Positions 2,678 through 27,505 are shown, counted from the first letter of the stretch. The stretch: 64,000 nt of DNA from Candidatus Heimdallarchaeota archaeon (GCA_048881705.1 JBHLSH010000001.1:128001-192000); one strand, 5' to 3'. A program made the numbers and translations. The notes: generated from the sequence alone by a model not told the origin.

Positions 2678-4597
2678 ATGAGCTTTGAAATCAACAAATG
2701 TGATGGTCAGGGAAGAGCAGGCATTTGGAAAGAAGGGAACCTTGGAACGCCAACCTTCGTTAATCTCTGTTCATCGGCATTTCCGACATCACAATCCGAT
2801 TTTCTTGGATTCACACAAATCCCAAAGCATAATACAAGCGAACTCTATCATTCGGGTAATACCAAAGCACGAGACGGAGGAGATGATACTAAATTTCCTA
2901 ATTGCTATGTATATCCCTCGCTGCAGGTTCAAGGAAAGTCAATACGTGATCTCAGACAGATTACGGATTTTTTTCCTGAAAATACGATCCATAAATCATC
3001 TTCTCATCGATCTTTTCATTTAATCCCCTGGGATTTACCTACTATCTATCTCGATGGATTTGGTGAATATGTTACGACTCTCAATAATCTTGAAGAACAG
3101 AATCCTTCAAGCAACTTACAATTCTTTCTAAATGTGCCATTTAGAAAGGAAATACTCAATAATAACCTTCCAAAACTGATGGCCAAATCGATTGTGGGGA
3201 TCAGCTTAGGGGATCTTTCAGCAGTTGTCTCAAATCCCAAATCACTCATCGAATATATCAATCGAATTAGGTCATGGATGTCTCCTCGACGATTATTGTA
3301 TGCTCCTGGTATTCCAATTACATACATCCCGATATTGGTGTACCTTGGAGTTGATATTTTCGATTTTTTGCAGCTGGAATTAATTTCAGGGGCCACACCT
3401 TATCGACCTGGCGTATTATTTGAGCAAAACCCTTCCCTCATCAAATTCATTGATATTTTAGAACAGACACAGAATGCACTCATGGAAGGAACCTTAAGGG
3501 ATATGGTAAGAGTTTTTGCAAATGCATATCCACCTCTTAAAGCTATCCTGCGTCGAATTGACCAAGATATCCCGGTAGAGGGTACGCCACTTTATAGAAC
3601 CCAAAGATTATTGTGTACAGATGAAACAGACTTCACTAGACCCGAAGTGTCCTCTTTTCGTGAACGGGTACGTTCACGTTATTTTCCCTCACCCAAGACT
3701 GAAGGGATAATATTTCTCCCGTGTTCGGCCAAAAAACCATATTCTACATCAAAATCGCATGCCAGATTTAAAGGTACAATAAAACGGGCCATAAAACGCC
3801 GGCGCCACTTGATCCAGGAAATAATTTTAACCAGTCCTTTGGGAGTGGTGCCCCGAGAACTAGAATACACATATCCTGCGGGACATTATGACATACCGGT
3901 GACCGATTATTGGACAATTGAAGAGAAAAGTCATATAACCGAAGACATTCGAAACCTCTTGGCGAAACTTGATCCATCTTTACCCCTTGTTGGCTTTGTA
4001 AGGGGAACCGATCGTGAAATCTTAGCCGAAGCTTGCGATCAAGAAGGTCGTACTATTCATCTCGCCGACCCCGATATCGGGCATTTAACGTCCCCTGAAA
4101 GTCTCCGACACTTCAGTACTCTCTTAAGGGCGGCTTTTGGAGGGATTACCATAAATGAAACATCCTCCAGCCGTCTATTATTCCTCAGAACAATAGCTGA
4201 TTTTCAATTTGGAAAAGGAACGGGAAACTTGTTACTTCCCGATCAGGCAAGAATATCAGGCCATCTAGATCATGGATTGCGGGTAACGATGGATGGAAAA
4301 CATCTTGTTACGTTTCGCCCCGAAACAGGATTACTGACATTATCTCTCGCTGCTGGGCAACGAATAATGAACTATACTGAGAATATTGTTGTATTTGACG
4401 GTGAAAAAATCCAGGGTTCCACAATTTTTGCTCTCGGTATAATTCACGCCAATACTGCCATCCGCCCCAATGATGAAGTCTTGGTTGTGAACAAGGAAGG
4501 ACAGCTAATTGCAGTAGGAACATCATATCTTTCAGGCTGCCTATTGGTTGAAATGAATCGGGGAAAAGGAATAAAAATACGGCAAAAAGTGAATTAA
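2678..4597 (+). CDS. arcS: Archaeosine synthase subunit alpha (ArcS): TGT-like barrel, DUF5591 and PUA domains
   Basis: LPCSAKKPYSTSKSH motif, TSPLGVVPRELE, YDIPVT, C-terminal PUA domain; directly upstream of RaSEA. Confidence 0.9.
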   Translation: MSFEINKCDGQGRAGIWKEGNLGTPTFVNLCSSAFPTSQSDFLGFTQIPKHNTSELYHSGNTKARDGGDDTKFPNCYVYPSLQVQGKSIRDLRQITDFFPENTIHKSSSHRSFHLIPWDLPTIYLDGFGEYVTTLNNLEEQNPSSNLQFFLNVPFRKEILNNNLPKLMAKSIVGISLGDLSAVVSNPKSLIEYINRIRSWMSPRRLLYAPGIPITYIPILVYLGVDIFDFLQLELISGATPYRPGVLFEQNPSLIKFIDILEQTQNALMEGTLRDMVRVFANAYPPLKAILRRIDQDIPVEGTPLYRTQRLLCTDETDFTRPEVSSFRERVRSRYFPSPKTEGIIFLPCSAKKPYSTSKSHARFKGTIKRAIKRRRHLIQEIILTSPLGVVPRELEYTYPAGHYDIPVTDYWTIEEKSHITEDIRNLLAKLDPSLPLVGFVRGTDREILAEACDQEGRTIHLADPDIGHLTSPESLRHFSTLLRAAFGGITINETSSSRLLFLRTIADFQFGKGTGNLLLPDQARISGHLDHGLRVTMDGKHLVTFRPETGLLTLSLAAGQRIMNYTENIVVFDGEKIQGSTIFALGIIHANTAIRPNDEVLVVNKEGQLIAVGTSYLSGCLLVEMNRGKGIKIRQKVN

Positions 4598-4598
4598 A

Positions 4599-5705
4599 AT
4601 GTCTCCGTCTCTAAATTTTCGTTTGGCTTCGACGATAACAAAACTTCGACATGAATATCTTGCTCTCCAAAAAGAAGATGCTCATCAAAAGCTATGGGAT
4701 AAATTCGAAAAAGGTCCCGGATTTAATACTTTGACGGTCGTAATCCCTACAAGGGGGTGTAGCTGGGCATTGTCTGGAAATGGCGGGTGTTCTATGTGTG
4801 GATATGTCAATGATTCCTCCCGGGATCAACCTATCCCCTCTGAGCGAATCTTAAGAAATATAAGAAATCAACTATTAGAAAATCACGAGGAAAAACCTAT
4901 TCATCTGAAGATCTATAACTCTGGAAGTTTTTTTGATCAATGGGATGTTCCGAAAAATCTTCGTGACCAGCTAATTAGGCTTATTCAAGAAACTCCGAAT
5001 GTATTCAAGCTAAGTGTAGAAAGTAAATCGGAATATATCCTCTCCTGTTTTGATCTTATCAAGGAAGCTGCCAAACAATTGGCTCCTAAAGAGCTAGAGA
5101 TCGGTATTGGATTAGAAAGTTCAAACGATGCAATCATAAGGGATTGCCACAATAAAGGCACCTCCTTGGATGTGTATAACCAAAGTGTGCAGCTACTTCG
5201 GCCCTTAGGGGTTCGAATCAAGACCTATATACTTATAAAACCCCCCTTTCTTACCGAAGCCGATTCTATAAGAGATGCTATCCAAACAGCTATCGAAGCA
5301 GCCAAGATCGGAACTGATATCATTTCTTTCAGTCCGTGCACCGTTCAAAGCGGAACCTTGGTAGACTTTCTTTATAGACAGGACCGATACCAACCACCTT
5401 GGCTATGGTCAGTTCTTTACATTGTCCGAGAGATTCGCTCTCTTTACCCATCACTACCTATCATCTGTGATCCAGTCGCTGCAGGAAAACCGAGAGGAGC
5501 CCACAACTGTGGAAAATGCGATACACAGGTACTTGAAGAAATTAATAGAATGACAGCTTCCGAAAGCATCCCTCGGAATCTTTCTGAACTTTCTGACATC
5601 TGTACCTGTCATTACAAGTGGATACGTTTGGTACAAACCCCAATCGAAATTTTCCGCTCACGAAACCTTTCGCAGCTACGAAAGTCATACCCTTTAGAAA
5701 ACTAA
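4599..5705 (+). CDS. Archaeosine biosynthesis radical SAM protein RaSEA (TIGR01210-like)
   Basis: RGCSWALSGNGGCSMCGY cluster motif, YNSGSFFD, IGLES, YILIKPPFLTE, YQPPWLWS, RGAHNCGKCD; 1 bp after arcS. Confidence 0.9.
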   Translation: MSPSLNFRLASTITKLRHEYLALQKEDAHQKLWDKFEKGPGFNTLTVVIPTRGCSWALSGNGGCSMCGYVNDSSRDQPIPSERILRNIRNQLLENHEEKPIHLKIYNSGSFFDQWDVPKNLRDQLIRLIQETPNVFKLSVESKSEYILSCFDLIKEAAKQLAPKELEIGIGLESSNDAIIRDCHNKGTSLDVYNQSVQLLRPLGVRIKTYILIKPPFLTEADSIRDAIQTAIEAAKIGTDIISFSPCTVQSGTLVDFLYRQDRYQPPWLWSVLYIVREIRSLYPSLPIICDPVAAGKPRGAHNCGKCDTQVLEEINRMTASESIPRNLSELSDICTCHYKWIRLVQTPIEIFRSRNLSQLRKSYPLEN

Positions 5706-5715
5706 CCTCTCACTC

Positions 5716-6864
5716 TTACGTCTTTGAAGTAAGGAATTTTTGGAGTTCCTTGGCATCATGGAAAACATAACTGTCATCAATCTCTTCTCGTATACGTTGA
5801 AGAGTCTGTTTGACGGGCTTTTTCAGCTTTGGAGGAATTTTTACCTTGAGTCCAACATAAAAATCTCCTCTTTGAGAGCTATTTGGTATGGGAGCTCCTT
5901 TCTTCCTTATCGTGATGATCTCCCCACTCTCAGTCCCAGGGGCTACTGTGATTCTTTCTGTTCCGTTAATAGAGGGAACAGTGAGCTTTACGCCTAGGAT
6001 GGCATCAATAAAACTTATAGGGTACTCAAGTAGGATATCTGCCCCGCTACGCTTGAAAAAAGGATGAGGATCTACGGATATAACCAAGAGCAGATCACCA
6101 CGAGGACCCCCTAATTCACCAGGCCGGCCTTCGCCACGCATAATCACTCGCATTCCAGAGTCCACGCCAGCGGGAATATTGGCCTCAACCGTTCTAAATT
6201 GTTTAACCTTGCCAACACCATCGCATGTTTCACATTCGGCACCACGAGGAATTGTTTGACCTTCTCCTCGGCAACGGGGGCATGTTGAAATATTTACAAT
6301 TTGGCCAAAGGCAGACCGCTGAACTTGACGGATTTCCCCGGTTCCTTGGCAGGTAGAACAAGTGGACGATGATTTACCGGGTTTTACTTTCATTCCGTGG
6401 CAAGTCGGACATTGTGCCCAATTGGGTACCTTTATTTTCTTGGTTAGTCCATTCATTGCTTCTTCAAACGAGATTTCTAGATTAAGATGGACATCAGCCC
6501 CACGTTGAGGTCGTGGTCGGGAAGTTCGTGCTCGAGTCCCTCCTCCAAAGCCGCCAAAGAGATCCTCAAAGATACCAAAACCTCGGAATAAATCCTCAAA
6601 GCCCATACCTGAAAAATCGGTGAAAGGTGTACCAGAAATTCCCGCGTGACCGTATCGGTCGTATCGAGCTCGATTTTCACTGTCAGAGAGTACTTCGAAG
6701 GCCTCTGCGGCTTCCTTGAATTTGTTTTCAGCGTCAGGGTCATCAGGTTTCATGTCAGGGTGATATTTTCTCGCTAGCTTACGAAATGCCTTCTTAATTG
6801 TCTTGAGATCCGCATCCCTGGGAACTCCCAAGACTTCATAGTAATCCCGCTTGTTTTCGCTCAT
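5716..6864 (-). CDS. dnaJ: Chaperone DnaJ
   Basis: J domain with HPD, G/F-rich linker, four CxxCxGxG-type repeats, C-terminal domains. Confidence 0.97.
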
Positions 6865-6931
6865 CTATGTCACTTTGATGATATTATAAACCTTTGTGGA
6901 AACAGGGAAGATATATGCCCGCCTACTAGGG

Positions 6932-8797
6932 TTATTTTTTATCCTCATCCACAATTTCGTAATCGACATCTACTACTTCAGATTCATCAGCGCCTGCAGG
7001 TGCTCCCTGAAATCCTGAGCCAGGTGCTCCTTGGAAATCTGCTCCAGCAGCTCCTTGTGCTTGGGCTTGTTGAGCATACATCTGCTGTGCCAATTGATGA
7101 GTTACCTTTTCAAGTTCTTCTACATTCTGTTTAATAGCAGCAACATTTTGTCCCTGTAGAGCCGTTTTTGTTGCCTCAATTTGCTTCTCGGCCTGGGTAC
7201 GCAAACCACTGTCAACAGCATCTCCTAGATCCTTGAGCAGCTTCTCAGTCTGATAAACCAGCGAATCGGCCTTATTTCGAGTTTCAGCTGCTTGGAGTCG
7301 CTCTGTATCTTCGGTCTCGTATTTCGCTGCCTCATCTACCATCCGTTGGAGGTCAGCTGCGCTAAGCCCACTATCGCTTTTAATTGTGACTTTCTGTTCA
7401 TTTCCTGTTCCCAGATCTTTCGCTGATACATGGGCAATTCCATTGGCATCCATATCAAAGGTCACTTCAATTTGAGGGATACCCCTAAGAGCAGGTGGGA
7501 TCCCTACAAGTTGAAATCTCCCCAAAGTAATATTATCCCCAGCCATCTTTCGTTCTCCCTGCAGCACGTGAATTTCTACGCTGGGTTGGTTATCAGCTGC
7601 AGTAGAAAAGATTTGACTCTTTTTTGTGGGAATTGTGGTGTTTCTGTCAATTAGTCTGGTGAAAACTCCACCCAAGGTTTCTATTCCAAGCGATAAAGGA
7701 GTAACATCAAGAAGCAAAACACCTTCGACGTCACCAAGCAAAATTGCCGCTTGAACTGCGGCTCCCAGGGCAACGCATTCATCTGGATTGATTTCTTTAG
7801 TAGGCTCTTTTCGGAAGTACGAACGTATAGCAGATTGGACGGCAGGAACACGGGTAGATCCGCCCACAAGCAGTATCTTGTCAATTTCAGAGGGTTGCAG
7901 CTTCGCATCTGAAAGCGCCTGCCGTGTTGGGCCCATTGCTGCTTCTATTAGATCTGCAATCATGATCTCAAATTTCGCTCGCGTGAGAGTGAGATTTAGA
8001 TGCTTTGGGCCCGAACTATCCGCATAAATATAAGGTAAATTGATTTCCGCACTTGTTTTCTGAGACAATTCGATTTTGGCCTGCTCTGATGCATCTTTTA
8101 AGCGCTGCATAGCCATGGGATCCTTGGATAAATCGAGTCCCGAATCTTTCCGGAATTCTTCCACAATCCAATCCATAATCCGTTGGTCCATATCATCCCC
8201 TCCTAATCGATTGTTACCTGAGGTAGCTTTAACCTCGAAAACTCCTTCAGAAAGTTCGAGAATCGAGACATCAAAGGTTCCTCCTCCTAGATCGAAAACG
8301 AGGATAGTTTGTTCCTCTTCTTTATCTAGACCGTACGCCAATGAAGCGCTGGTCGGTTCATTAATAATCCGCATCACATCCAGTCCGGCAATTCGACCTG
8401 CATCCTTAGTTGCCTGCCGTTGGGAATCGGAGAAGTATGCCGGGACTGTAATTACCGCTTTTTGGATTGTTTCCCCTAGATATGCTTCGGCATCGCGCTT
8501 AAGTTTTTGAAGAATCATAGCACTAATTTCAGGGGGCTTATAGGTTTTTCCGTCAATATCTATCGTAAAATTGGTTCCCATTTCACGTTTAATTGATCGT
8601 ATTGTTCGTTCGGGTTTTGAAATAGCCTGACGTTTAGCCAATACCCCAACAACGCGTTCACCATCTTTAGAAATGGTCACTACGCTTGGAGTTGTTCTTT
8701 GTCCTTCTGCGTTAGGAATAATAACAGGTTTTCCGCCTTCCATTGTAGCAATGGCGGAGAATGTTGTCCCTAGATCTATACCGATAGGTCGTGTCAC
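6932..8797 (-). CDS. dnaK: Chaperone DnaK (Hsp70)
   Basis: [29 protein letters not shown] and LVGGSTRVP motifs; short N-terminal form typical of archaea and Gram-positive bacteria. Confidence 0.98.
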
Positions 8798-8815
8798 TTA
8801 AAGTTCACCTTCTCA

Positions 8816-9445
8816 TTATGGTTCTTGGTTTTGTTTTGCAATAATAACTTTAGCAGGCCGTAGTAGCGAAGAGTTTATCAGATATCCAGTTTCTATTTCC
8901 TCTAAAATGGTGTCTTCCTCTTCGGAAGAGGAACGTACCGAAACAACTTCATGGAGATTAGGATCGAACTTCTCACCAAGGGCCTGGATCGGTTTAACAC
9001 CCTCATTCTTCAGAAAACTCTGGAATTGCTTATGAATCGCTTGAAAACCAGTTAAGATTTCATCAGGATCTAGCTGATCTTTAACCCAACTCGTTTCAGC
9101 TTTTTGAAAGCTATGGGCAATACTTAGCAGCTTCAACAGCAATTTTTCGTTGGCCTGCTTCAGAAGTCGAGCCTGCTCGGCCTGAGAGCGTTTCCTCAGA
9201 TTCTCGTAGTCAGCAAGCGCTCGAAGATAACGTCGATGAAGCTTGTTGTACTCATCATCTTTCTCTTCCAGCTTTTCATAGAGCCCTTTAATCTCAGCTA
9301 AGAGCGGTTCGCTAGGACGCTCTGCGCTTTCTGGCGTCTTCTGGTTTGACATCGTTTCAGCTTGTTCAATCTGTTCGTCAATGTCCAAATATTCGCTTTC
9401 ACTGTCATCGGGAGTCTTGGTTTTTTTCTCGACCATTGTTATCAA
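8816..9445 (-). CDS. grpE: Nucleotide exchange factor GrpE
   Basis: ALADYENLRKR, FDPNLHEVV and GYLINSSLLRPAKV motifs; upstream of dnaK. Confidence 0.96.
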   Translation of the reverse strand: MITMVEKKTKTPDDSESEYLDIDEQIEQAETMSNQKTPESAERPSEPLLAEIKGLYEKLEEKDDEYNKLHRRYLRALADYENLRKRSQAEQARLLKQANEKLLLKLLSIAHSFQKAETSWVKDQLDPDEILTGFQAIHKQFQSFLKNEGVKPIQALGEKFDPNLHEVVSVRSSSEEEDTILEEIETGYLINSSLLRPAKVIIAKQNQEP

Positions 9446-12432: not shown

Positions 12433-13074
12433 TTAGTTTGTCTTCCTCACTTCTTTCCTGATATCCGGCAGGTTTTTTAGTTCCTCCAGCCCCCGATTTA
12501 GCTCCCCTTCCAATTCCTTAATCTTTTTTTGTAGAAAGTCAATGGTGGTCTGGTTATCCTTCTGTGCCAATTCGTCTCCGCATGAGGCGCATATGAACCC
12601 CATTTCAAAGGCATCTGAAAATGTTACGGGGGAATGTCCCTCCTGGCAAGCATAAAGGAGATTTCTCTGTTCATAATCTAAACGTTGTCGTAATTTCTTT
12701 AGACTAAGTTTTCGGCGGCTTATAATCAGATCTCGTATTCGCTCCCAGATAGGAGACCAATAGTATACAAAATAGCCGGTTTCCTTATCGCGCACGCGCC
12801 TATAACGAGCCAAAGACCTTTCATTCAATTTGTACAACGATTTTCTTACTTCCTTTAGGGCGATACGAGAACTCTCATTTATGGCATCATCGGGTTGGGA
12901 TGAAGGAACTTCCGATTTTTCTTCGATCTCTTCATTGAGAAGGTTTACGATTTGTTCGTCAATAATTTCCTTCTGGTTTAGCAGGATATTAAGAACACTC
13001 ACAGTCACGGGATCTGTGAGTTTTAGCATTATGTCGTTTAACTGCGAAAAACGCATAAATATGACCCGTGTCAC
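12433..13074 (-). CDS. tfe: Transcription factor E alpha
   Basis: Winged helix with EVRKSLYKL...YFVYYW; Zn ribbon YACQEGH...FSDAFEMGFICASCG. Confidence 0.9.
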   Translation of the reverse strand: MTRVIFMRFSQLNDIMLKLTDPVTVSVLNILLNQKEIIDEQIVNLLNEEIEEKSEVPSSQPDDAINESSRIALKEVRKSLYKLNERSLARYRRVRDKETGYFVYYWSPIWERIRDLIISRRKLSLKKLRQRLDYEQRNLLYACQEGHSPVTFSDAFEMGFICASCGDELAQKDNQTTIDFLQKKIKELEGELNRGLEELKNLPDIRKEVRKTN

Positions 13075-13773: not shown

Positions 13774-14493
13774 CTAGAGTACAACAATGACAATTACAAG
13801 GGCAATTACTGACCCCGCCAACAGAGCCAATAATGTACGGTTCTGGGTCAGTTTTCTCGAAATTTTCCCTAATGTTGATTGAACTTTCTGCAATTTAGAA
13901 TTTACTTCGTTAATTTTTGTATCGATTTTATCGATTTTAACTCCCTGTTCATCCAAACGCCGAGCTAGGGTACCTAGATTCTGGGATATTTGGGTTATCT
14001 GTTCATTCATCCTATCCATAGAAGTTAAAAAGGAATTTTCAAGCATTTGGAGGCGTTCTTCTAGAGTTCCCACATTTTTAGAGGAAATTGCTTCTCCTGG
14101 ATATGCAATTTCATAAATCCGGGTACCAACACCCGTTTGTTCTTGGGGGCTCGCTCTTAAATCCATAGTTTCGATTGATTCGCTGATTTCTCCCAACGTT
14201 CCACGAAGTAGCTGCATTTTTCGTTTTGTTTCATCAATTTCCCTAATCTTTTCATTTTGTTTTTTGATATCTCCTGGTTGAAGAAAACGAGGCATAGATG
14301 CAAGTAATTTGGATGTCAATGAGCGTTTCTGGACCACTTGTTCTGACATTCCTCCCGAAAGATCAGCAGCCATTCCTTCCATCGATTCTAAGACAGAGTC
14401 TAAGTCATGAATGAAATTTACGAGAAGTTCTTTCTCGGTAGGTTCATCAGGTTTTTTAAACCATTTACTCAAACGTTTTGTAAAGACCGACAC
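13774..14493 (-). CDS. Tail-anchored Q-SNARE-like protein
   Basis: Hydrophobic residues at all 15 SNARE layer positions around Gln183 (LDEQG), a basic juxtamembrane stretch and a 19-aa transmembrane helix at the extreme C-terminus; helical N-terminal region. Confidence 0.8.
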   Translation of the reverse strand: MSVFTKRLSKWFKKPDEPTEKELLVNFIHDLDSVLESMEGMAADLSGGMSEQVVQKRSLTSKLLASMPRFLQPGDIKKQNEKIREIDETKRKMQLLRGTLGEISESIETMDLRASPQEQTGVGTRIYEIAYPGEAISSKNVGTLEERLQMLENSFLTSMDRMNEQITQISQNLGTLARRLDEQGVKIDKIDTKINEVNSKLQKVQSTLGKISRKLTQNRTLLALLAGSVIALVIVIVVL

Positions 14494-21083: not shown

Positions 21084-24000
21084 CTAAATCTGTAAATAAT
21101 CTTCTGCAAGAACTTGTTCAAGCTTTTTTATGAGGTGAACGGCATTATCCTTTGTGAATATTAAAGGAGGTTTAATTTTAATCACATTCAACAAGGGACC
21201 ATCGAAACCAAGCAATATTCCTTCTTCTTTCATCCTTTCTACAACATATCGGGTTTTTAGCGGCGCTGGATCCTTTTTTTCCGGATTTATAACCAATTCA
21301 GCCCCAAGAAAGAGTCCCTCTCCTCGGACATCGCCAATTATCGGAAATCTCTCCTTTAATTTCAGAAGCTCCGTCTTGAGATAGGCTCCGATTTCGCGTG
21401 CATTTTTTTGAAGGTTTTCCGTTTGAATGACTTCAAGAACAGCTAATCCAACTGCACATGAGACGGGATTGCCTCCTGTGGTTGTAAAATATTCCATTCC
21501 ATTATCAAATGCCCTTGCTATTTCTGGTGTTGTCACAACAGCACCTATAGGATGTCCATTACCCATTGGTTTTCCCAGGGTCACAATATCAGGCACCACA
21601 TTCTGAAGTTCAAACCCCCAGAAATGGCTGCCCACTCTGCCAAAGCCCACCTGAACCTCATCTGCAATACAGACTCCACCGCAACTTCTGATATGTTTAT
21701 AAACCTCTTCCAAGTATCCCTTGGGAAAAACAATCTGTCCTCCAACTCCAGGTAACGACTCACAAATAAAGGCCGCTGGGCCTCTTCCAGCTCCCTGCAA
21801 GCTTACCAATATTTGCTCTACTTCTGTAGCATATTTCTTGGATGCCTCTGGATCACCAGCTCTGTATAATCCCCGAAAAATATCTGGCATACTCACCTTA
21901 TGTACGTAGGGAGGTGAACCTTGACCTCCGGGGCCTTCATGTTTGTAGGGACTGATATTGATTAATTCCCCAGTATTCCCGTGATAGGCATGATCGATGA
22001 CGATTATGTCATGTTGTTTTGTATACGTCCTAGCTAGCCGCAAGGCTAATTCATTCGCTTCACTGCCACTATTGACAAAAAAACACACTTTGAGAGGGTC
22101 GGGGAATGTTGCACACAAACGTAGAGCATATCTTACTAGATTTTCATGCAGATAACGCGTGTTAGTGTTTAAAACGATTGACTGGCGGCGTAAAGCATCC
22201 ACTACCTTCGGATGATTGTGTCCAACATGTGGGACATTATTCACCGCATCAAGGTAAGAACGTGCATTTTGGTCATATAGATATTGTCCGTACCCCCTTA
22301 CAATGTGCAAGGGATTTATATATGAGATACTCAAAGATGGGCCTATTTTCTGCTTTCTTAACATAAGAATCTCTTCCATAGATAGCCCATCTTGGGGAAA
22401 CGATTCATCAGGAATCCGTAAGAAAATATTAGGGTCGAGACACACCGACAACCAGACTTTTTTTTGATTTGCTGGAATTTTGAAGGGGAACTTGTTTGTG
22501 GTTCCGAATAAACAGGTTGACAGCTGAAAATGAAGGAAATAAAGAGGGGTTTCACCCTTTAGTTTCCCCATATAACCCAAATGTTCCCCTTGGCTGATTT
22601 CATCACCAATTTCAAGGTTTTTTATCGAATCAGCCTCTAAATTTCTGTAAATAGTGAAATAAGTTAACTCTCCCTTGTCTAGATCTAGAATATGTTTGAG
22701 GATAAAGAGAGAAGTAAAATCAGACGATTCATGACCTTGTTTCCAGTAAACTTGACCATCAGCAGGACTGTAAATTGGTATACGGGATATTAGGAATAAA
22801 TCGTACCCTAGATGTATTGTTGGGGTTTCAACAGAACTGGGCAGATCAATGGTGTAATATAGACGCGGCTCATTATGTCTCCCAATACCGATATTGATAT
22901 TTGATTCTTTCATTCTGTCATAGATAAGACGCTGTAACCGGTCCTTATTCTGAAGTTCGTAAAATGAGCTGAATTCCAAACTATTCACACTGAGATCAAA
23001 GACGATGTGCGGCTGATTTGAGAAGTTATATTCTATAATAGAAGTATGTGAAGTTCGAGCAAGCCATTGGCCTATACTTTGTGTTTTCAGAGAGGGGATC
23101 ATTTTACATGCTATACGAAAGGATATATGGGCAAATTCGGGATGAATCTCTTTGAGCTGGTATAATGTTTTCCACGCCAAATCCTCTGAAATGCTCAGAT
23201 ATTCATTGTCGGGATCTATTTTCCGCTGATATGCCGATATAGTCACACTTAGACAGAGACGGAGACAAATAAAAATAAACAAGCATTCCACTTCCAGGTC
23301 AGTCAATGGAAATACGGAATGGAACCCTGTAACGGCTACTGAAGCAATACCAATTGGATTTTCTTTCCCAAGCATCAAATATGCAATAGCAACTGCCAGC
23401 TCAAAAACGGTACAACTCTTTACCATATCTCCAAAATCTATGATACCAAAATCGTAGCTAAACGGCGTGGGCCGATAATTTACAATAATGTTGAAATCGT
23501 TCGCATCGTTATGGATCACGCTCTTCCGTAACTTGCCTACCTTGGATTTCGTATTATTTTCAAAAAACGTCAAGAAATATTCTAAAAGCGCCTTTCTTTC
23601 AGGAAGTTGGATATATTCTTTATATCTTTCAATCACAGTATGAGCATGTCTTAAATCCCAGTGAAACTCACGTTCTGATGAAGGATGAGAAAAAGTTGAC
23701 AAACCCTTAGTTAGTTCTCCGATAAAATGGCCAAATTTCGCAACAAGCTCTTCATGGTGAGGATTTATTCTTGCAAGAACCTTTCCAGGAAGATAAGTGA
23801 GCAATCTTATGAAATAATTCTCTTCTCCCCTTTTATAATGCCCAAGCAGATTATTATTCCTCGTCAAAATTATCCGTGGCGCGATCCCGGAAGCAACAGA
23901 AGATAGATGAATCAAGGCTTGATTTTGAAAATCAAGTATTTCCCTCTTCTCAAGTGTACTAGCAATCTTTAAAACAAATTCAAGCCCATCCGATGCCCTT

Positions 24001-24143
24001 AGATAAAAATTTTGGTCACGTTCACTAGGAAACTCCTGTGCGATTCCGTTAACTCCGTACAGCTTCATGACAATTGCTTGGGCCTCTTCCTCCGAGAATT
24101 CGGGCCTTTTTAATGAGTGGTTCACTGAAATTCTAACCCGCAC
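21084..24143 (-). CDS. Fusion of an amino-alcohol kinase (APH/hydroxylysine-kinase-like), an M23-like insert and a class III PLP aminotransferase/phospho-lyase
   Basis: [16 protein letters not shown] and IIDFGD (kinase); IHLGYDLF and HFQL (M23-like); [46 protein letters not shown] (class III aminotransferase). Confidence 0.9.
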
Positions 24144-26527: not shown

Positions 26528-27505
26528 ATGAGTGAAGGCAAACGCATGAAATTGATAGAACAACAGCAGCAAGATAAGCAGCGATTGAAAGATATTCAAA
26601 CACAACTGAACGCACTGAAAACTAAACTTTTAGCATTGGAAACTGAAAAGGAACGGATTGAACAGCAAATCGCAGGCCGTGAACAAGAAATCAGGGACCA
26701 AGCCAACTCTGAGAGTGATATAAGTCAAATTCAGCTACAAGAAGAAGGTCAATTGGGCATTCTAAAGGAAATTTGGTTTTTCCCCTCCTGGAATCAATTG
26801 ATTGATACGAATTTTAAGGGATTTTATTTAAATCAGCCTGTAATGGAATTAAAAAGAGATTCCGTCTTGTTAATCCCGGATATTACTCTCACAGGAACTG
26901 ACGAAACAACTGGTGAAGCTTTTATCCTTGTTGTAGGTGTTGGTGTTTATTATGCTCAATTCTCTATCTCTTTGGGAAAAATCATTACAGATTTTCGTGA
27001 AATCTGCGGGATTGTATTACCCACTGAAGCTTTTATTCGAGCTCAGGATCAAGCCAGCTCGACAATCAACTCTCAAAAATTAGAAATGACAGAGTACATG
27101 ACTAAGATTCCGTTTACTTTTCTTTTAGAACGAGAAACAACTCAGATGTATATGCGAGGTGTTGTAACGAGGAATATAATGCATCCAAATAAGGAAATCT
27201 TTGATCTATTAGAAAATTTGTGTAAATCAAAAACGACACTTTCAGAGGAAGACGGCTTTAAGATTTTATCAGGGGGGTTATCTGCAGAACATTCAATCTA
27301 CAAGAACGAATTATTAACAGAAAAACAAATACCTGAGTACAGTCGAATTACTGCGGGGTTAAAAAACGTTAAACCAACGTTAGGAAAGATTATGAGTACC
27401 TTACAGTTAGAAGAAATGAGGGCTCAGATCTTTAAGAATATAAAGCAAATCAAACACGATTATACCACTATTGGGCTTCCCCGATTACGCGATTGGATGC
27501 CGTAG
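26528..27505 (+). CDS. Hypothetical protein: N-terminal coiled coil plus an unknown globular domain
   Basis: 325-aa ORF; residues ~8-60 are heptad-rich; no family recognised. Confidence 0.7.
   Translation: MSEGKRMKLIEQQQQDKQRLKDIQTQLNALKTKLLALETEKERIEQQIAGREQEIRDQANSESDISQIQLQEEGQLGILKEIWFFPSWNQLIDTNFKGFYLNQPVMELKRDSVLLIPDITLTGTDETTGEAFILVVGVGVYYAQFSISLGKIITDFREICGIVLPTEAFIRAQDQASSTINSQKLEMTEYMTKIPFTFLLERETTQMYMRGVVTRNIMHPNKEIFDLLENLCKSKTTLSEEDGFKILSGGLSAEHSIYKNELLTEKQIPEYSRITAGLKNVKPTLGKIMSTLQLEEMRAQIFKNIKQIKHDYTTIGLPRLRDWMP

Follow-up and report, generated by a model that had tools for sequence, protein, structure and literature searches.

We identified a gene for a tail-anchored protein with a complete 16-layer SNARE-type motif in a Heimdall-group archaeon, encoded within a 64,000-nucleotide stretch of a Candidatus Heimdallarchaeota archaeon genome (GCA_048881705.1, JBHLSH010000001.1:128001-192000; hereafter the window). 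On residue numbering and layer identities, the gene reads as an ortholog of HPS1 ("Heimdall prototypic SNARE"), because its residue numbers are colinear with those of HPS1 and its homologs are 239-aa proteins of the Hodarchaeales type. We consider it highly probable that the gene encodes such an ortholog, composed of an N-terminal helical domain, a 53-residue motif, a basic linker and a membrane anchor. The family has already been published and crystallised, and the window gene represents one more single-copy ortholog of the Hodarchaeales type rather than a new discovery.

The architecture of the protein and the positions of its neighbouring genes are summarised in Table 1. The GTG start codon aligned to Met1 of the homologs in an alignment of 21 sequences. 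An earlier note on this DNA had located the tail-anchored protein, its Gln183 codon and all layer offsets, and these positions proved exact in the ORF list and a script check. The layers preceding Gln183 are occupied by M159, M162, I166, I169, L173, L176 and L180 (offsets -24, -21, -17, -14, -10, -7 and -3), and those following it by I187, I190, I194, V197, L201, V204, L208 and I211 (offsets +4, +7, +11, +14, +18, +21, +25 and +28); all 15 non-zero layers are hydrophobic. The residues I, L, V, M and F account for 16 of the 53 residues between positions 159 and 211, with 15 of these 16 falling on the 15 layer positions (hypergeometric P ~3e-12), a layer pattern that is not due to chance. A perfect heptad alone indicates a coiled coil and nothing more. 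The SRKLTQNRT linker and the transmembrane (TM) helix behind it were also found as the note had described them, the helix having a mean Kyte-Doolittle hydropathy of 3.24 and terminating at the last residue of the protein.

Table 1. Coordinates of the SNARE-like gene, its parts and its downstream neighbours in the window
Feature	Position	Strand	Basis
Complete CDS, 239-aa tail-anchored SNARE-like protein	13774..14493	(-)	GTG start at 14493, stop 13774-13776; ORF list and translation; 239 aa in almost all of the 67 homologs
N-terminal helical region, residues ~20-130 (helices 20-54, 74-108, 116-130)	14104..14436	(-)	AF2 model, pLDDT 75-86 over residues 20-100; may form a regulatory bundle of three helices
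SNARE motif, residues 159-211, layers -7 to +8	13861..14019	(-)	Layer residues checked; conserved in 21 homologs; lines the modelled tetramer interface
Zero-layer Gln183 codon	13945..13947	(-)	Q in 19/21 homologs; opposite 'LDEQG' in the N-terminal motif of SNAP-25
Basic juxtamembrane linker SRKLTQNRT, residues 212-220	13834..13860	(-)	Most homologs read (S/A)(R/K)K(L/I)T-x-N(R/K)
C-terminal transmembrane anchor, residues 221-239	13777..13833	(-)	Hydropathy; hydrophobic tail in 21/21 homologs
Roadblock/LC7 (MglB-like) gene, 159 aa	13197..13676	(-)	Pfam Robl_LC7 31.8 bits; weak NCBIfam MglB match
TFIIE-alpha gene, always beside the Roadblock gene	12433..13074	(-)	Pfam TFIIE_alpha; synteny

A word-indexed search returned 67 homologs, nearly all of the same length and 54-94% identical, whose named sources are Hodarchaeales, Hodarchaeota or Heimdallarchaeota MAGs. 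An exhaustive HMMER search among 1.84 billion cluster representatives yielded 36 proteins at E<=1e-3. About 20 of these are related over their full length (233-282 aa) and share 27-39% identity, the exception being a 76% representative of the window protein's own cluster. The SNARE-like family is small and lineage-restricted. Among deposited proteins, the nearest is MFW9854039.1 (94% identical), followed by others at 70-76%. MFW9854039.1 (P0003) is labelled 'Candidatus Thorarchaeota archaeon' at NCBI; its MAG is probably mislabelled, since the phylum-wide search places the gene inside the Heimdall class only.

Conservation of the motif was assessed in an alignment of 21 diverse homologs (26-75% identity). 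Thirteen of the 15 non-zero layers are hydrophobic in every sequence, layer +3 in 20 and layer +6 in 17 of the 21, versus 14% hydrophobic residues at non-layer positions. Layer 0 is occupied by Q in 19 sequences and by H in two, placing a polar layer at one exact position throughout the alignment. Residues L180, G184 and K193, the basic linker and the terminal TM helix are also conserved. The two members with His at the zero layer (P0069 and P0082) carry the motifs EEHGMK and GDHGVK, and a 4H layer at the centre of the bundle might respond to pH or metals.

The earlier note had mentioned SNARE-like genes from Heimdallarchaeota, and such genes are indeed published (10.1101/810531; 10.64898/2026.10.19.760048). 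Neveu et al. (bioRxiv 10.1101/810531) reported tail-anchored SNARE-like proteins in Heimdallarchaeota LC_2, LC_3 and B3-JM-08, including HPS1 (PWI47941.1), whose SNARE region spans aa 159-211 (constructs 150-216) and which joins complexes with neuronal SNAREs. Bentahar et al. 2026 (10.64898/2026.10.19.760048) showed that HPS1 forms a very stable homotetramer (34 kDa, Tm >90 °C), and solved its crystal structure at 2.4 Å by molecular replacement with syntaxin-6, revealing a parallel 16-layer four-helix bundle with four Q183 residues at layer 0. The same preprint names the layers Ile169 (-4), Leu173 (-3), Val197 (+4) and Ile204 (+6), employs an F155W variant, reports ER localisation of HPS1 in HeLa cells and describes the N-terminal domain of the family as a 'likely three-helix bundle'. 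It counts about 50 members, spread over Heimdallarchaeaceae, Kariarchaeaceae and Hodarchaeales and mostly found once in a genome, with Heimdall SNAREs forming a clade apart from Qa, Qb, Qc and R in its tree. HPS1 complexes resist NSF, and fusion activity has been shown for no family member.

The window protein shares with HPS1 and HPS2 (PWI47941.1 and OLS22354.1) an identical numbering of F155, motif 159-211, Q183, I169, L173 and V197. It also shares the ~239 aa length class, the N-terminal helical domain, the short basic linker, the C-terminal TM helix, the presence of one gene per genome, the restriction to Heimdallarchaeia and, as predicted here, a parallel homotetramer. It differs from HPS1 at layer +6, which is Val204 in the window protein and Ile204 in HPS1. 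The window protein apparently belongs to the Hodarchaeales group of the Heimdall SNARE family. The earlier description of a membrane-fusion-type protein with an 'unusually complete' motif holds in that the 16-layer SNARE motif is complete; as a property of the HPS1 family, such a motif is neither unusual nor new.

Profile searches placed the protein closest to SNAREs at borderline scores. In hmmscan, Pfam SNARE (PF05739) was the top match (23.0 bits, E 8e-5; gathering score 26.8), with generic coiled-coil families crowding in behind it, and NCBIfam returned only sub-threshold Rad50/SMC coiled-coil noise. A six-frame whole-genome search with PF05739 scored the SNARE locus at 26.4 bits (26.8 with neighbours), borderline at the cut-off of 26.8, versus 13.9 for the next-best locus; none of 14 control prokaryote genomes had a PF05739 match above the cut-off. 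Across the 21 family members, weak Pfam matches were obtained to SNARE in 11 (E<=0.01), to V-SNARE_C in 10 and to Synaptobrevin in five. Because these matches are similarly weak, Qa/Qb/Qc/R assignment is not possible from Pfam, and the comparison with SNARE HMMs, while ranking PF05739 first, resolved no subgroup.

Searches against PDB sequences gave a similar picture. With phmmer, the LDEQG stretch of the SNAP-25 N-terminal motif (SN1) fell on residues 180-184 with Gln183 on its Gln (E ~0.02), the zero-layer residue Q53 of SNAP-25. The recurrent natural matches of the family profile were syntaxin-6 (E 5e-4, the best natural match), syntaxin-7, syntaxin-1, SNAP-25 and SNAP-29, alongside designed t-SNAREs. 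These SNARE matches were interspersed with generic coiled coils (designed coiled coils, reovirus sigma-1, Snapin and COG6), and chemoreceptor (MCP) matches were weaker, at E 0.03-4.

Like eukaryotic Qc/Qb SNAREs (syntaxin-6, SNAP-25 SN1; PF05739, PF12352), the window protein combines a 16-layer heptad motif and a central Gln with the local 'LDEQG' of SNAP-25 SN1, a tail anchor with a short basic linker, and the predicted geometry of a parallel four-helix bundle. In contrast to them, it scores below the Pfam gathering cut-offs and has no detected cognate Qa/Qb/R partners, SM protein or NSF/SNAP. Moreover, whereas eukaryotic SNAREs assemble into 3Q:1R heteromers, the Heimdall complex is a homotetrameric 4Q assembly, and Heimdall SNAREs form a separate clade in published trees. 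Given the ambiguous subtype signal, the lack of detected 3Q:1R partners, the single SNARE-like gene and the separate clade, the canonical Qa/Qc architecture claimed in the earlier note was overstated.

The region ahead of the motif invites comparison with Qa syntaxins bearing an Habc domain, which likewise have an N-terminal helical region before the SNARE motif. In the AF2 monomer of the window protein, the N-terminal helices pack against the SNARE helix, reminiscent of the syntaxin closed conformation. Unlike Habc syntaxins, however, the protein has two long helices and one short helix, and the Syntaxin N-terminal family is absent among the listed Pfam matches. An Habc-like nature, as suggested earlier, is plausible from the modelled helices, while fold searches pointed to generic helical bundles only.

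The AF2 monomer (pLDDT 68, pTM 0.61) is all-helical, comprising the three N-terminal helices listed in Table 1, helices 138-182 and 190-217 and the TM helix, with a kink in the SNARE helix at its zero layer. When the full-length model was searched with Foldseek and VIA-align, only designed or generic helical bundles and no syntaxin were retrieved (best Z 12.4 versus ~13 needed for helical proteins).

The four-helix bundle proposed for modelling in the earlier note was recovered as a prediction. The homotetramer model of residues 145-216 reached an ipSAE of 0.83 (runs 0.84, 0.83 and 0.83) versus 0.00 for the best of three controls, with a partner pLDDT of at least 88 and a contact agreement between runs of at least 98%. 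The score was calibrated on two copies rather than four, with the mark reached by 20 of 30 solved homo-pairs and by one of 23 single chains. The lowest-error contacts pair a residue with itself or with heptad neighbours (187-187, 197-197, 201-201 and 204-204), and residue 183 lies in the interface; because of these self-pairing contacts, the modelled bundle is parallel and in register. The model supports homotetramer binding by the window protein, although prior exposure of the predictor to solved SNARE bundles may account for part of its score, and a regular heptad coil of any kind might reach the mark.

The genome (3.96 Mb, 90.9% complete, 7.5% contamination) carries the SNARE-like gene in single copy. 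The earlier note had proposed looking for R-SNARE, SM and NSF/SNAP-like genes; the searches for R-SNARE and SNAP returned only the same gene and generic TPR proteins. The best Synaptobrevin match in the genome is the SNARE-like gene itself (17 bits), with no other synaptobrevin-type (R-SNARE) match. No Sec1/Munc18 (SM) match was found in the genome, a search that was silent in all control genomes too. Likewise, Pfam Longin (PF13774) gave no match at E<=0.01 in the six-frame whole-genome search, with the control genomes equally silent. Matches to SNAP (PF14938) were rejected as alpha-SNAP candidates, as they are TPR proteins of 260-1300 aa and the family was also matched in 10 of the 14 control prokaryotes. 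The genome encodes a Get3/ArsA homolog (284 bits) and four Cdc48-type AAA+ ATPases.

Within the class, the SNARE-like gene occurs in 37 of 83 species genomes. Leaving the window genome aside, five families contribute 39 genomes, of which 36 have the gene (19/21, 2/2, 1/1, 3/3 and 11/12); it was found in none of the 43 genomes of two further families (0/31 and 0/12). Outside the class, in a search of 400 genomes of the phylum, two of 317 genomes had marginal matches of 25-29 bits. The published family distribution is reproduced here. Copy number in the class is one per genome except for one tandem pair, which lies in a sister-family genome (G069:C473:2993-3697 and 3760-4458; locus L042) and agrees with the rare duplications mentioned in the 2026 preprint (10.64898/2026.10.19.760048). 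This tandem pair is possibly a first step toward heteromeric bundles.

We propose a mechanism in which the N-terminal domain and the motif would face the cytosol, an orientation suggested by the lack of a signal peptide, the basic residues N-terminal of the TM helix and the absence of any sequence after it. The tail anchor would probably be inserted by the Get3/ArsA homolog. Four identical copies would zipper from the N- to the C-terminus, giving a bundle of four parallel helices held in register, with 4Q at its central layer. With copies in two apposed membranes, zippering would draw the membranes together, dock them and possibly fuse them, in a homotypic, simpler version of eukaryotic QabcR SNARE fusion. 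Recycling of the very stable bundles would probably fall to one of the four Cdc48-like AAA+ ATPases and not to NSF/SNAP. The model suggests that the window copy would form the same bundle as HPS1, and we infer further that this bundle would form in trans and drive fusion. Overall, a role in fusion or tethering has somewhat better than an even chance.

The alternative that survives best, while still unlikely, is a non-fusogenic, SNARE-shaped tail-anchored coiled coil, assembling in cis as a homotetrameric scaffold, tether or membrane-organising hub. Its likeness to SNAREs would then reflect shared ancestry or four-helix geometry without a common fusion function. Such an assembly would fit four identical parallel helices, in which nothing forces trans pairing, and a genome with no R-SNARE or SM match and with SNAP matches of a generic TPR kind. 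It would equally fit the extreme stability and NSF resistance of HPS1 bundles, the fact that fusion has been shown for no member, and the many generic coiled-coil families that score near SNARE in Pfam. However, the whole SNARE layout, with its 16 layers, polar zero layer and short basic linker rigidly coupling motif to TM helix, is kept across 26-75% identity, and this layout is what fusion force transmission requires. The family is also confined to an archaeal lineage with reported vesicle-like compartments, and HPS1 can substitute for R, Qb or Qc helices in neuronal complexes (10.1101/810531). These observations count against a non-fusogenic cis scaffold.

A eukaryotic-type Qa/Qc SNARE, acquired by horizontal transfer (compare the Legionellales SNAREs) or present through eukaryotic contamination of the MAG, is very improbable. 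Although the Qa/Qc impression of the earlier note, the Qc-SNARE syntaxin-6 as best natural PDB profile match and the 7.5% contamination estimate are in line with this origin, the gene lies on a long contig among archaeal neighbours (TFIIE-alpha, Roadblock, hut genes and glnA), in a block syntenic with closed or near-closed relatives. Its single-copy occurrence across five families follows a vertical-looking pattern, its similarity to every eukaryotic subtype stays below the Pfam cut-offs, and the published phylogeny places it in a separate monophyletic clade (10.64898/2026.10.19.760048).

Scarcely credible is a chance look-alike, that is, an unrelated tail-anchored coiled coil (chemoreceptor-, phage-fibre- or archaellum FlaC-like) with a core Gln: reovirus sigma-1 and designed coiled coils do rank above SNAREs in some searches, and JGI automatic names of homologs read 'archaellum component FlaC', 'chromosome segregation ATPase' and 'RecN', but these names stem from generic coiled-coil matches well below cut-off, MCP matches reach only E 0.03-4, the polar layer keeps its exact position in all 21 sequences, and the crystal of the ortholog HPS1, a SNARE-like 16-layer bundle, largely refutes this explanation. 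Chemoreceptor- or phage-like proteins, which the earlier note had named as a possible better match, thus proved weaker than the SNARE matches, and a four-helix bundle is predicted.

With regard to gene neighbourhood, the SNARE gene sits between an upstream histidine-utilisation/glnA block and, across a 97-bp gap, the downstream Roadblock/LC7 gene, followed by TFIIE-alpha, all on one strand. All own-genus loci with enough flanking sequence, and one genome of the sister family f2, retain the order SNARE, Roadblock, TFIIE-alpha. In one relative at 36% identity, Roadblock and TFIIE-alpha are still paired but sit 3.3 kb off on the opposite strand, and in families f3, f5 and f6 no homolog of the window Roadblock gene was detected within ~1.5 kb of the SNARE gene. 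Its linkage to the SNARE gene is conserved within the order only, and Roadblock travels with TFIIE-alpha and not with SNARE. The genome holds ten Roadblock genes. Co-transcription of Roadblock and SNARE was rejected on a reading of the sequence, given a TTTAAA element ~35 nt before the Roadblock start, inside the 97-bp gap, which makes a separate promoter likely.

Gene context is absent from both SNARE preprints (10.1101/810531; 10.64898/2026.10.19.760048), and a paper on Asgard roadblock proteins draws no link to SNAREs. SNARE and Roadblock/LC7 might constitute a functional module in Hodarchaeales, with the Roadblock protein as a small-GTPase platform regulating SNARE assembly and, in other Heimdall families, a conserved ~345-aa neighbour or the flanking Ras-like GTPase as a substitute. 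We regard this module as unlikely, and functional coupling of the two genes as possible, weakly supported. If true, such a module would correspond, in unfused form, to eukaryotic longin-SNAREs or to fusion under Rab/GEF control.

In families f5 and f6, the SNARE gene always adjoins a gene for a ~345-aa protein, co-directional upstream in f5 and divergent in f6 (L043:282-1346(+), L044:309-1346(+), L045:2356-3420(-), L046:5-880(-), L047:2374-3411(+), L048:157-1266(-), L049:217-1257(-) and L051:2349-3392(+)). This protein is 42-47% identical between the two families and multi-copy. It had no Pfam, NCBIfam or PDB sequence match; with its confident AF2 model (pLDDT 85.5), Foldseek found nothing (best E 0.13) and VIA matches (Z<=8) covered the N-terminal helical hairpin only. 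Its family is almost confined to Heimdall-group MAGs, with one match labelled Odinarchaeota. Three paralogs occur in the window genome, and the one at window 26528-27505(+) lies 12 kb from the SNARE gene.

A different arrangement was observed in a distant SNARE clade (P0083, 26% identity), where the SNARE gene is flanked by GTPase and TPR genes at loci L020 and L021. At L020, these encode a divergent 199-aa Ras/Roc small GTPase (3221-3820(-)) and, in convergent orientation, a TPR protein of 535 aa (4866-6473(-)) that faintly matches the SNAP family. The GTPase-SNARE-TPR trio looks trafficking-like; the TPR/SNAP matches are non-specific. In the closed-contig relative CP070665.1, a 106-aa Cas12f1-like TNB (TnpB-type) fragment (L016:3385-3705 (-)) is inserted between the amidohydrolase and SNARE genes, which shows that the junction upstream of SNARE can vary.

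Elsewhere in the window, the hut (urocanase / histidine ammonia-lyase / imidazolonepropionase-like) and glnA cluster contains a 1019-aa ORF (21084-24143 (-)) with an unusual combination of APH-type phosphotransferase, M23 peptidase and class-III aminotransferase domains. GrpE, DnaK (Hsp70) and DnaJ are encoded in tandem at 5716-9445 (-).

The neighbourhood of the SNARE gene, with its Roadblock/TFIIE-alpha block, ~345-aa neighbour and Ras-like GTPase, could guide searches for partners and is weak evidence when taken alone. Membrane fusion in the eukaryotic endomembrane system depends on SNAREs as its core machinery, and finding them in the archaea most closely related to eukaryotes bears directly on the origin of compartments. 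For this exact family, the point has been appreciated before and taken up experimentally, with biochemical work in 2019/2020 and a crystal structure in 2026. To this, the window adds an independent confirmation of the family distribution and of the predicted homotetramer.
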